Shown in pieces: positions 750 to 54,606 of a DNA stretch of 64,000 nucleotides; within the stretch, counting starts at the first letter, position 1, and every line of letters starts with the position of its first letter. Origin of the DNA: an uncultured Opitutales bacterium (GTDB lineage Bacteria > Verrucomicrobiota > Verrucomicrobiia > Opitutales > T3Sed10-336); the NCBI GenBank assembly GCA_964645585.1, contig CAZYAN010000009.1, positions 18,480-82,479 of the forward strand. Direction: 5' to 3'. A program made the translations under genes and the position numbers. The notes beneath the pieces were generated by a model that did not search any database, was not told where the DNA came from, and saw nothing but the letters and a program-made list of their open reading frames with translations.

Positions 750-2171
750 ATGGCCATCGAAAATAACAATCTCACACAACAAAAAACAGCCGGATCCACC
801 CGGGTAGTTCAGAATAACCAACAATGGATTCCAGGGGGCGTCGTCTCCCTGAACCGCAAGGTCGAGCCGAACCTTTGCTTTTCACGGGGCCGCGGCAGCC
901 GTGTGTGGGATGTCGATGGAAACGAATACATTGACTACCAGGCCGCCTTCTCCGCCTACTTCCTTGGCCACAACGACCCGGACATCAATGCCGCGGTCCG
1001 CAAGGCGATTGATGAAGATCACGTCCTGATGGGCGCCGGTCCGACGGAGCGGGAGGGCGAACTCGCCGAGCTTATTTGCCGACATGTTCCTTCGGTTGAG
1101 CGTGTCCAACTTACCAATACCGGCTCCGAGGCAACCTACCACGCAATACGGATTGCACGGGCTCACACTGGCCATGACGACATCATCATCGTCCAAGGCG
1201 GTTACAACGGCTGGCACAACGATGTTGCCGCCAACGTCATCAGCAGCCTTGACGCGGTCGGTCCGCGCGTTTCCCCGGGCGAGTATCCGTTTGACGCGAT
1301 TTCGGCTGGCATTCCCGATGTCCAGAAGCGGTATGTTCACGTCGTCAATTACAACGACCTCGACTCGGTGCGCCACGTCCTGCGGCGCCACAGGATCGCC
1401 TGCATGATTCTCGAGCCGGTCCTGCAGAACATCGGGATCGTCCATCCGCAACGCGGTTACCTGCAAGGTTTGCGCAAGCTGGCCGATGAATTTGGATTTC
1501 TCCTGATCTTCGACGAAGTTAAAACCGGCTTTCGCCACGCTCTTGGCGGATACCAGAGTCTCTGCGGCGTCCAGCCGGATCTCTGCACGTTCGGAAAAGC
1601 GATCGCTAACGGCTATCCAATCGGCGTGATCGGCGGCCGCGCGGATCTGATGGACTATTTCGCTCACCGCGATCCCCAAAAGCGAGTGTTGATCGCCGGC
1701 ACCTACAATGCCCATCCAATCGCTCTCGCCGCCGCGATTGCGACGATCACAAAGCTGGCAGAAACCGACTCCCCAACGGTCTACACGCACACCTCAGAAC
1801 TGGGGAAAATGCTCGAAGACGGGGTCAATTCGATCCTGAGCAAATATGATCGCCCCTTCCATTTTGCGCGCCAAGGATCAGCCTTCTGTCTCTATTTCAT
1901 GGACCGTGCCCCGCGCGATTTCCACGACATCGCTGAAAACCACGACTTCGCCTTCGACGCGACGCTGCGGCGTGCCTTGATTGAGGAGGGAATCTACCAG
2001 TTCCCTCTTCCAATTAAACAGGGAAGCATCTCCTACGCCCATACCAAGAGCGACATCGAAGTCACCTTGGAGAAGCTGGAAGCCGTCCTTGCTCGACTTG
2101 AGCAACCAACTGCTGGAAGAGCTGGACAGAAGACGGTCCAGCCCTCCCGCACGGCGTCCATTTCCAAGTGA
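750..2171 (+). CDS. class-III PLP-dependent aminotransferase (glutamate-1-semialdehyde 2,1-aminomutase-like)
   Basis: 473-aa ORF. GSEATYHAIRIARAHTG, DEVKTGFR and the lysine context FGKAIANGYPIG are class-III aminotransferase/GSA-aminomutase signatures. The substrate cannot be assigned from sequence. Confidence 0.85.
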   Translation: MAIENNNLTQQKTAGSTRVVQNNQQWIPGGVVSLNRKVEPNLCFSRGRGSRVWDVDGNEYIDYQAAFSAYFLGHNDPDINAAVRKAIDEDHVLMGAGPTEREGELAELICRHVPSVERVQLTNTGSEATYHAIRIARAHTGHDDIIIVQGGYNGWHNDVAANVISSLDAVGPRVSPGEYPFDAISAGIPDVQKRYVHVVNYNDLDSVRHVLRRHRIACMILEPVLQNIGIVHPQRGYLQGLRKLADEFGFLLIFDEVKTGFRHALGGYQSLCGVQPDLCTFGKAIANGYPIGVIGGRADLMDYFAHRDPQKRVLIAGTYNAHPIALAAAIATITKLAETDSPTVYTHTSELGKMLEDGVNSILSKYDRPFHFARQGSAFCLYFMDRAPRDFHDIAENHDFAFDATLRRALIEEGIYQFPLPIKQGSISYAHTKSDIEVTLEKLEAVLARLEQPTAGRAGQKTVQPSRTASISK

Positions 2172-52864: not shown

Positions 52865-53249
52865 TCAACGCAGATAGCGCTGATCGATCCGCTTGACCTG
52901 GGTGAATTGGCCGCGGAAAAGCGCGTCGACCAAAGCTTTGGTCTCCTCGGGGATTTTCTTTAGCGATTCTTCTAAAGAGGGCAAGTTGGCGTCGGCCGCA
53001 CCTCCCGCGTCACCCGCGAATTCAGGCGGTTCCGATTCGTCCCCGGGCGTTGCGGAAGCGGCGGCCGCAAACGCGCGCTCCCAATGCTCTTCGTCGTAAC
53101 CTTGGTCGTCCGTTTCAGGCAACGTATCTTCCTCGACGGATCGCGAAGGTTCCGCGTTCAGCGAGGAGGAAGCGGGAGAGGAAAAATCCGCCTTCGGAAC
53201 GGATGGCGCGGCAGACTCAGCTTGCGGCTCGGTCAGGACTTTTTTTTTT
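52865..53249 (-). CDS. dnaX: -1 frame continuation of dnaX (putative tau-specific C-terminal extension, ~128 aa)
   Basis: My hand translation of the -1 frame from the A-run gives [56 protein letters not shown]...[32 protein letters not shown] with no stop. The track ORF 52865..53122 is its 3' part and has no convincing independent start. Confidence 0.6.
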
Positions 53250-54423
53250 GGGCCGCGCCGGCAGCCGCCGCCGGTTCGGCGACGCCGCCCCCGTTCATCT
53301 CGTCCGGAAGGCCCTCCGCCAAAGCGGTGATCTCCCGGATCAGCGTGTCAATTGCGCGAGCCCGGCTCGCTTCCAGAGCCTTCAGGAGAACAACCTCCAA
53401 ATTGACCTTCTCGGAGAGCCCGGTTTTCACGCTCTCCTCGCCCGCCTGCAATTCATCAAGCAGGCGAACCAGCGCCTCGGTGGTCAGCGCAATGCCGAGT
53501 CGATCACTTCGGCCGCGGTTGCGGATCGCATCGAGCAGCACCTCGCGAACGACCTCTTGCAAATCGAGGAGAACCCGAAACAGATCGCGGCCTTCCGCGG
53601 CGATCTCATCGACCATCTCAACAATCTTTACCGCGTCGCCCGACGCAACCGCCGAGGCCAGCGCCGAGATCCGCTCGCGGTCGACGAGCCCATAAACGTC
53701 CAGAACATCGCTGGCCGAAATCTTCTCGCCGCAAAACGCGATCATCTGGTCGAGGATCGACTGTCCGTCGCGCATGCCGCCTTGCGCAAGGCGCGCGATC
53801 GCCCGCAAGGCTTCGTCGTCCGCGTCAATTTTCTCTTCGCGGCAGATCAGCGCCAGACGTTCCGCGATCAAGTCCTCGGAAATCGGTTTCAGCTCAAAAC
53901 GCTGGCAGCGCGAGACGATCGTCGGGAGAACTTTTTGCGCTTCCGTCGTGGCAAAGACAAACTTCACATGCGCGGGCGGCTCTTCGAGCGTCTTCAACAA
54001 GGCGTTGAATGCCTGGTTCGAAAGCATATGGACCTCGTCGATGATGTAGATCTTAAAGCGCCCCTGCGTCGGCGCATAGCGCACGTCGTCGCGAAGGTCT
54101 CGAATCTGGTCGACCGAATTGTTGGAGGCGCCGTCAATCTCCATGACATCCATCGAGGAGCCGGAGTTGATCGCCCGGCAGTTGGCGCACTCCCCGCACG
54201 GCGTCGGGGTCGGGCCTTTGTCGCAGTTCAGCGCGCGGGCGAAAATGCGCGCGGTTGAGGTCTTGCCAGTTCCGCGCGGACCGACGAAAAGATAGGCGTG
54301 CGCGATCCGGCCGCTTTCGATGGCATTGCGGAGCGTCCGCACGATATGGTCCTGCCCGACGACGTCCGCAAACTGCTGCGGCCGCCATTTCCTCGCGATA
54401 ACCTCGTACCCTGCTTCTGCCAT
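53233..54423 (-). CDS. dnaX: DNA polymerase III subunit gamma/tau, zero-frame product (gamma-like, 396 aa)
   Basis: Walker A is GPRGTGKTS. The zinc module is [11 protein letters not shown], followed by IIDEVHML and SRCQRF. The ORF ends ...GAAQKKKS* inside an A10 run. Confidence 0.9.
53240..53249 (-). promoter_or_regulatory. A10 homopolymer containing an in-phase A_AAA_AAG slippery heptamer (candidate recoding or transcriptional slippage site)
   Basis: The minus strand reads GCC CAA AAA AAA AAG TCC TGA. The heptamer A_AAA_AAG is in the same phase as the E. coli dnaX frameshift site. Confidence 0.6.
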
Positions 54424-54505
54424 ATTAACTGTCTGTTATTTGGTTACTGGTTATCGGTTATTCGTTTTCAGTGATCGCCCGGTCACGGAGAGAGAAGAAA
54501 AAAAA

Positions 54506-54606
54506 GTGGCCAGGCACCCTACGGCACATGCGGATCATGGTCACCGTTGCTACCTTCCGGTCCTGGCGGAGTTCACCTGTCCGGCATTGCATAGGACCTG
54601 GCCACC
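54506..54606 (-). ncRNA. ffs: signal recognition particle RNA (small 4.5S type)
   Basis: The minus strand reads GGTGGCCAGGTCCTATGCAATGCCGGACAGGTGAACTCCGCCAGGACCGGAAGGTAGCAACGGTGACCATGATCCGCATGTGCCGTAGGGTGCCTGGCCAC followed by T8. It contains the conserved domain-IV core CAGGaCCGGAAGGuAGCA with a GGAA tetraloop. The 5' and 3' ends pair (GGTGGCCAGG/CCTGGCCAC). It sits directly upstream of dnaX, a common synteny. Confidence 0.8.

Follow-up and report, generated by a model that had tools for sequence, protein, structure and literature searches.

A reversed layout of the clamp-loader gene dnaX, in which the DNA places the second of two open reading frames (ORFs) in the −1 frame relative to the first and a poly-A run stands right before the stop of the first, was described by Antonov, Coakley, Atkins, Baranov, and Borodovsky (2013, Nucleic Acids Research 41:6514; PMC3711429), and is also treated by Atkins et al. 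(2016; PMC5009743). Antonov et al. counted 17 genes of this kind, spread over 12 genera; nine contain a run of ten A's (A10), and for this A10 type transcriptional realignment was predicted by analogy with Thermus (PMC3711429). The nine A10 genes, shown in their Figure S3, include that of Coraliomargarita akajimensis, a member of the class Opitutia (GACGAAAAAAAAAAGTCC...), together with genes from Chlorobi and Bacteroidetes. In the dnaX gene of Thermus thermophilus, RNA polymerase slips at an A run and produces mRNAs of variable length (Larsen et al., 2000, Proceedings of the National Academy of Sciences 97:1683, as described in PMC1088944 and PMC5009743). An experimental test of the reversed dnaX genes was not found in the literature searched. 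Here, we describe a dnaX gene of the reversed layout in a stretch of 64,000 nucleotides from an uncultured Opitutales bacterium (hereafter the window, meaning the whole stretch at its full length). In this gene the DNA frame encodes a gamma-like product, production of the full-length tau-like product almost certainly requires recoding of some kind, and programmed slippage of RNA polymerase on the A10 run is probably the main route to it.

The elements of the window gene are as follows.

53233..54423, minus strand: zero-frame ORF of dnaX, 396 residues, clamp-loader ATPase domains I–III, gamma-like (ORF list and translation; TIGR02397, NF004046, PF13177, PF22608, PF12169).
53240..53249, minus strand: A10 homopolymer (T10 on the plus strand), candidate slippage or recoding site, beginning at codon position 2 (CAA AAA AAA AAG; sequence, and homologous position in the Opitutia genes).
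53239..53245, minus strand: in-phase A_AAA_AAG heptamer at the 3' end of the run, possible −1 ribosomal slippage site (phase verified).
52865..53248, minus strand: −1-frame tail, putative tau-specific C-terminal extension (KKKVLTEPQ...RIDQRYLR; frame translation, purifying selection, no conserved start).
53217..53219, minus strand: +1-frame stop TGA, seven codons past the run (frame translation).
52868..52987, minus strand: conserved C-terminal motif of the tail, predicted helical hairpin, presumed partner-binding end of tau (alignment of 49 species, AlphaFold2).

At the frame transition the minus strand, read directly from the window sequence, is GCC CAA AAA AAA AAG TCC TGA. The zero-frame protein thus terminates as ...AAQKKKS*, with its stop TGA at 53235..53233. 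Its N-terminal part clearly consists of DnaX domains I–III, as shown by the matches to TIGR02397 (dnaX_nterm; 448.8 bits against a cut-off of 250), NF004046 (488.8 bits against a cut-off of 400), and the Pfam families PF13177 (E = 1e-49), PF22608 (E = 3e-14), and PF12169 (E = 3e-10). In addition to A_AAA_AAG, a second in-phase heptamer, A_AAA_AAA, is located three bases upstream. The −1 frame is free of stops from 53248 to the TGA at 52867..52865, which corresponds to 124 codons past the shift and to a trans-frame product of 519 residues; the 85-residue ORF reported by gene callers at 52865..53122 is the 3' part of this tail. The A10 run is the sole homopolymer of at least nine bases in the 64-kb window, which has a G+C content of 60% and in which about 0.01 A/T runs of at least ten would be expected. 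The run is therefore far beyond chance.

An earlier note, made from these letters alone, had reported the sequence at the transition, the A10 run, the in-phase heptamer, and a 396-residue product comprising domains I–III, all of which were confirmed by the sequence and the domain scans. The C-terminal sequence of the tail and the trans-frame peptide that it gave were also correct upon translation. The −1 frame is indeed open to 52865, as that note stated, but over 124 codons rather than the roughly 128 it counted. Likewise, its description of the layout as the reverse of the E. coli arrangement holds, whereas its treatment of that layout as unrecognised does not, since the layout of the window dnaX had already been described in 2013 (PMC3711429).

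Comparison with the reversed dnaX genes of Antonov et al. revealed no difference in kind: the window gene shares with them the two ORFs, the −1 frame change at the DNA level, the A10 run right before the zero-frame stop, and a tau that needs recoding. The Thermus dnaX resembles the window gene in having an A run (A9) at the end of the gamma part within a similar sequence context (GAGAAAAAAAAAGCCTGA), a stop close by in each alternative frame, and a single gene with two products. The polarity is opposite, however, in that the DNA frame of Thermus encodes tau and the slipped transcripts encode gamma, whereas the DNA frame of the window gene encodes gamma and transcripts with one additional A would encode tau; furthermore, slippage has been demonstrated for Thermus and is inferred here. 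The E. coli dnaX shares the gene itself, the in-phase A_AAA_AAG, the −1 direction of the shift, its position at the domain III boundary, and the gamma/tau pair. In E. coli, however, the shift yields gamma and not tau, and the run consists of six A's and a G, as compared with 9–10 A's here. The E. coli stimulators, an upstream Shine-Dalgarno (SD)-like element and a 3' stem-loop (RF00382), have no conserved counterpart in the Opitutia genes, among which an SD-like element was seen in 10 of 49. In the case of mxiE/spa13 of Shigella flexneri, a homopolymer also joins two overlapping ORFs, and a non-templated nucleotide is needed for the longer, functional product (PMC1088944, PMC5009743). That system is plasmid-borne, involves a regulator of type III secretion and a secretion component, and uses a U run in mxiE, whereas the device in the window belongs to an essential gene of replication and is conserved throughout a class.

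To define this conservation, one genome per species was scanned, and 80 related loci were returned, 49 of which belong to Opitutia (Opitutaceae, Coraliomargarita, Pelagisphaera, Cephaloticoccus, Lacunisphaera, Rariglobus, and others); the counts of 50 genes given below comprise these 49 and the window gene. At the homologous position the run is A10 in 43 genes and A9 in the remaining seven. All 50 genes require a −1 shift or one extra nucleotide in order to continue, and the frame reached in this way is open for 91–170 codons. These results indicate that the split dnaX is real and conserved, with every one of the Opitutia genes out of frame the same way. The A10 form (GAA AAA AAA AAG) is separated from the A9 form (TCA AAA AAA AAC) by substitutions and not by insertions or deletions; therefore, the frame relation has been kept since their common ancestor.

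A single Opitutia locus lacks the run. In this locus, from Ca. Moanabacter sp. (L015, dnaX from 3001), dnaX is one ORF of 473 residues, the homologous site at approximately codon 373 is a degenerate GAA GAA AAA ACG, and the same C-terminal motif follows in frame. Judged from its sequence, this gene represents a natural in-frame tau, from a lineage that either reverted or stayed in frame. In another locus (L045, dnaX from 1995), a zero-frame TAG lies two codons before the A10 run (GAG CCC TAG GGC GAA AAA AAA AAG), which is probably a base error in the metagenome-assembled genome (MAG).

Within the species of the window, A10 was found in nine of ten assemblies; these nine are 99.6–100% identical and derive from nine different runs. 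The tenth (L210, Logan SRR26497570) carries A11 on a 50-kb contig, with the run at 1315..1325 corresponding to window 53240..53249. The 90%-identity cluster of the window DnaX contains a protein of 519 residues (P0124) that is encoded by this contig and is identical to the predicted trans-frame product. Over 4.2 kb, the extra A in the run is the only insertion or deletion between L210 and the window; the 13 single-nucleotide differences include several that are private to L210 and some that are common to A10-bearing contigs. Either L210 is a true strain that has switched to the Thermus polarity, or its A11 is a homopolymer miscall. The transcriptional model would allow the A10 and the A11 allele alike to be viable.

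In a metagenome scan, in which the sequence context of the largest subclade was used as the query and A9 to A12 were allowed, 80 contigs with 55 distinct contexts were returned. A10 was present in 78 of these and A9 in two, and neither A11 nor A12 was found among the 80. The near-absence of A11 outside L210 indicates that A10 is the selected state. The two A9 contigs (L114, run at ~2264; L167, run at ~2271 on the reverse strand) have A9 in place of A10 in a GCG-A(n)-GGNCTGATTGA context, such that the tail frame would be reached by the loss of one nucleotide or the gain of two, and not by the gain of one. They are either assembly errors or variants tolerable only under transcriptional slippage, which would generate mRNAs of multiple lengths.

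We then considered whether the second ORF is the C-terminus of the same protein. After the shift was made in silico, all of the tails ended in LP.L..L...IP...R..L..LFRAKF..V.R in the alignment of 49 species, and the P, L, F, R, F, and V of this motif are invariant across 100 database proteins. The nucleotide diversity of the tails at codon positions 1, 2, and 3 is 0.48, 0.46, and 0.65, and the median ratio of nonsynonymous to synonymous substitution rates is ~0.49. In the conserved block of the tail, none of 48 sequences has a stop in the −1 frame, as compared with 79% and 63% that have stops in the other two frames. These values show purifying selection on the tail in the −1 frame. Moreover, in a large subclade a conserved −1-frame peptide, KKK-GLIERLE.RL, begins right at the run.

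A conserved start codon was sought in the 49 Opitutia tails and was not found. ATG is missing in 13 of the 49, and one tail (L004) has no ATG, GTG, or TTG over 108 codons. The first ATGs of the tails are scattered over 24 alignment columns, with an SD-like motif at only four of them. Because selection acts on the tail in the −1 frame, no start codon is conserved, and L015 and the A11 assembly contain in-frame fusions, the second ORF is the C-terminal part of DnaX and not an independent gene.

No curated family matches the tail itself. A word-indexed protein search with the 127-residue tail matched only the 85-residue ORF of the same species, and database relatives were reached by a profile built from 36 tails. 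The best 120 of these (P0002–P0120) have 57–123 residues, contain no Pfam domain, and are called 'hypothetical protein' wherever they are named. Pfam and NCBIfam scans of the tail gave no match, and a sequence profile search of the PDB returned noise only (E > 3). For the last 75 residues, modelled by AlphaFold2 with 100 homologues, helices were predicted at residues 40–46 and 49–64, with a block-mean predicted local distance difference test score of ~87–89 and a predicted template modelling score of 0.30, suggesting that a short helical hairpin follows a disordered linker. The predicted hairpin had no match in the PDB by Foldseek, and no structural link to tau domain V was obtained. Alignment of the Opitutia tails with the C-termini of outgroup single-ORF tau proteins by hhalign gave a weak match at the extreme C-terminus (P = 0.009 over 19 columns), which is suggestive only. 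The tail is conserved and sits where the C-terminus of tau would be, and the predicted hairpin would fit a small partner-binding motif. That the long product acts as tau, binding the alpha subunit of DNA polymerase III and DnaB, is inferred, as is the ratio of the two products.

Three other explanations of the layout were weighed against these data. The true gene might carry A11 and encode a plain in-frame tau, with A10 arising either from a mistake in sequencing or assembly or from a mutation that inactivated the gene recently; errors are common in homopolymers this long, and L210 does read A11, with the 519-residue protein in one ORF. Against this, A10 recurs in the nine other assemblies of the species and in nearly all of the environmental contigs, none of which has A11. 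Furthermore, the 50 genomes, each standing for a species and together stemming from many laboratories and platforms, all have the tail out of frame in one direction, and the A9 subclade is equally out of frame by way of substitutions. Sequencing error was therefore rejected as a general explanation, and so was a pseudogene, since dnaX is essential and a pseudogene kept across a whole class is not credible; together they are extremely improbable. Alternatively, replication slippage might toggle the DNA between A10 and A11 within populations and thereby act as an on/off switch for full-length tau. Hypermutability is a property of long homopolymers (PMC1088944), and both the A11 haplotype among the ten species assemblies and the two A9 contigs from the environment would fit such phase variation. 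However, tau is essential, so that the 'off' state would be inviable without recoding, the consensus run length is highly uniform over species and samples, and the in-frame A11 is absent from the 80 environmental contigs; for these reasons phase variation was rejected as very unlikely. Finally, dnaX might encode gamma only, with a small protein (85 residues in the window) translated independently from a second, downstream gene. Gene callers and databases do list the tail as a separate 'hypothetical protein' of 57–123 residues in all 120 best matches, and at 53122 in the window a TTG is accompanied by an SD-like motif. This arrangement is scarcely conceivable, however, given the scattered or missing start codons described above, the conserved −1-frame peptide that sets in at the run and ahead of every start codon, the −1 frame that is always open back through the run, and the presence of the fusion as one ORF in L015 and in the A11 assembly. 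A separate downstream gene was accordingly rejected.

These comparisons also bear on the earlier note, which had proposed that full-length tau depends on −1 ribosomal slippage or the insertion of one A by RNA polymerase and that the unshifted product is gamma-like. This proposal is now backed by the 50 Opitutia genes, the −1-frame selection, the missing conserved start, and the L015 fusion. The comparison of run length and frame in related dnaX genes that it called for gave A10 or A9 in all 50 Opitutia genes, always out of frame, and no conserved start codon in the 49 tails spoke for the independently translated downstream gene that it had considered in relatives. Its alternative of a homopolymer sequencing error did not survive the species and environmental assemblies. 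The reading of 11 A's that would have made this a simple in-frame tau gene does occur, in one assembly of the species and not in the clade.

As for how the frame is changed, we propose the following mechanism. Standard decoding would end one codon past the A10 run and give the gamma-like clamp-loader subunit of 396 residues. On the T10 tract of the template, RNA polymerase would realign the nascent transcript, thus producing mRNAs with A runs of variable length. The A11 mRNAs would be translated normally into a tau-like protein of 519 residues with a C-terminal extension of 124 residues, whereas the A10, A9, and A12 mRNAs would terminate within a few codons and give gamma-like products, the +1-frame TGA at 53217..53219 ending those that are one A short or two A's long. 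Some additional tau may come from ribosomes that slip by −1 on the in-phase heptamers A_AAA_AAG and A_AAA_AAA.

The features of the run argue for this mechanism. The run is never shorter than nine A's in the 50 genes. In the 42 A10 genes with the phase of the window gene (phase 2), the codon with the first A's of the run is GAA in 38 and CAA in four, and never GAG or CAG, although in the same genes GAA accounts for 35% of Glu codons, CAA for 21% of Gln codons, and AAA for 28% of Lys codons. As judged from codon choice, the 5' A's of the run are thus kept against codon bias, indicating selection for at least nine A's. The selected feature would then probably be the whole homopolymer and not the in-phase heptamer, which the earlier note had emphasised and which is indeed present. 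In addition, the frames that do not lead to tau are shut early in all 50 genes, within 11 codons in the zero frame and within nine in the +1 frame, as compared with a +1 background median of 20. Hairpins were sought in the 50 nucleotides upstream and 70 nucleotides downstream of the run, and none was conserved in position or unusually stable (mean z of −0.35 upstream and −0.60 downstream). A 5-nucleotide SD-like motif is located within 22 nucleotides upstream of the run in only 10 of 49 genes, and an Rfam scan of the window at E ≤ 1 detected only the signal recognition particle (SRP) RNA, leaving the DnaX frameshift element RF00382 unmatched. Transcriptional slippage is favoured because the run has at least nine A's, resists codon bias, and is followed by closed alternative frames, and because no stimulators are conserved.

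Several observations weigh against this assignment. The proposed slipping machine is deduced from sequence alone. The close stops result in part from the conserved −1-frame peptide (CTG ATT GAG) and hence are not independent evidence, and the 50 Opitutia genes are phylogenetically related and hence are not independent samples. The A11 in one of the ten same-species assemblies counts on the same side, as does the weak likeness of the tail to tau domains IV and V (the P = 0.009 alignment and the lack of a Pfam, NCBIfam, or PDB match). Furthermore, an in-phase heptamer is present in every gene, 41 of the 50 ending in A_AAA_AAG; a bare A_AAA_AAG shifts at ~14–16% without stimulators in E. coli-derived in vitro systems, and therefore a ribosomal contribution is possible. 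In one subclade (L004, L014, L020, and L048), GGAGGAG is located 9–11 nucleotides upstream of the run, resembling the SD-like stimulator of E. coli. These last observations would be expected if E. coli-type −1 ribosomal frameshifting on A_AAA_AAG (or A_AAA_AAA) were the main route, with faithfully transcribed A10 mRNA and some ribosomes slipping before the zero-frame stop. Ribosomal frameshifting would also fit the G that follows the run in the same 41 genes, the position of the zero-frame stop, which in most genes lies one codon past the heptamer and could thereby promote shifting, and the uniformly −1 direction of the shift, which is the criterion of Antonov et al. for ribosomal frameshifting (PMC3711429); Atkins et al. 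(2016) put the reversed dnaX in ribosomal terms for at least Chlorobium phaeobacteroides (PMC5009743). However, ribosomal slippage needs only seven bases, yet 9–10 A's are kept in every species against codon bias. The nine genes in which C follows the run end in AAC, which is weaker than AAG in bacteria (PMC5009743). No 3' hairpin is conserved, the SD-like element is missing in 39 of 49 genes, the Rfam DnaX element was not matched, and the +1 frame is also shut quickly, which is relevant only if mRNAs of other lengths exist. Ribosomal frameshifting is thus unlikely to be the main route. It may contribute more in the lineage of L004, L014, L020, and L048, to judge from the upstream motif. In these four genes the zero-frame stop lies 10–11 codons past the run rather than 1–2, and GGAGGAG encodes Glu-Glu.

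Comparative analysis thus establishes how the gene is arranged, that this layout is conserved, that the tail is selected and not initiated independently, and that at least nine A's are kept by selection; RNA polymerase slippage is the probable main route to tau.

Outside Opitutia, in Kiritimatiellia, Lentisphaeria, and other Verrucomicrobiota, dnaX is a single ORF of 440–700 residues. Six of these loci (L068, L069, L070, L071, L072, and L074; Kiritimatiellales and some other Verrucomicrobiota MAGs) are of the Thermus type, with A9 or A10 in frame with a tau ORF of 540–600 residues and with stops 1–4 codons off in the −1 frame and 1–14 codons off in the +1 frame. Four of the Thermus-type loci contain two runs approximately 25 codons apart (for example, at codons ~376 and ~397 in L068 and ~375 and ~401 in L070). 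Other outgroup dnaX loci have no run of A7 or longer. Both polarities of the A-run device are thus present in the PVC (Planctomycetes, Verrucomicrobia, and Chlamydiae) group.

One further element lies directly upstream of dnaX on the same strand and is given for context.

54505..54603, minus strand: small SRP RNA gene (ffs; Rfam RF00169, 68.4 bits, E = 5e-14).

The SRP RNA gene is not part of the recoding device. A T8 tract at 54498..54505, after the SRP RNA gene on the same strand and ~75 nucleotides before the dnaX start, is likely its terminator. The only tRNAs encoded in the window are tRNA-Arg(CCG) and tRNA-Gly(CCC); tRNA-Lys, whose gene content bears on the shiftiness of A_AAA_AAG, is not among them.

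Overall, an essential replisome subunit of these bacteria relies on a programmed 'error' in expression. This was recognised in 2013, and the window gene therefore adds no new category. What is new is the fixation of the site across the class Opitutia, in 50 genes and 80 environmental contigs, together with the comparative evidence on mechanism from run length, codon bias, and the stops in the two other frames; the tail that is under selection without initiation of its own; the in-frame gene of L015; the selection for at least nine A's; and the finding that the PVC group contains both polarities. Also new is the systematic misannotation of the tail: in public gene calls the C-terminus of tau is detached as a 'hypothetical protein' and DnaX is left annotated as gamma-only, which could mislead reconstructions of the Verrucomicrobiota replisome. 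With both polarities, the PVC group offers a good system in which to study what determines the tau:gamma ratio and whether the polarity makes a difference. A bolder reading, which we consider decidedly doubtful, is that the A10 tract is a tunable switch whose polarity and output are selected, with gamma as the default in Opitutia, the opposite in Kiritimatiellales, often with tandem A9/A10 runs, and A10 and A11 alleles that may coexist in the species of the window. If this were true, and if the frequency of slippage responded to growth state, for instance through ATP or nucleoside triphosphate pools or the speed of transcription, tau supply and replisome assembly would be tied to physiology via the fidelity of RNA polymerase, and the switch would represent a previously untested way of regulating replication.

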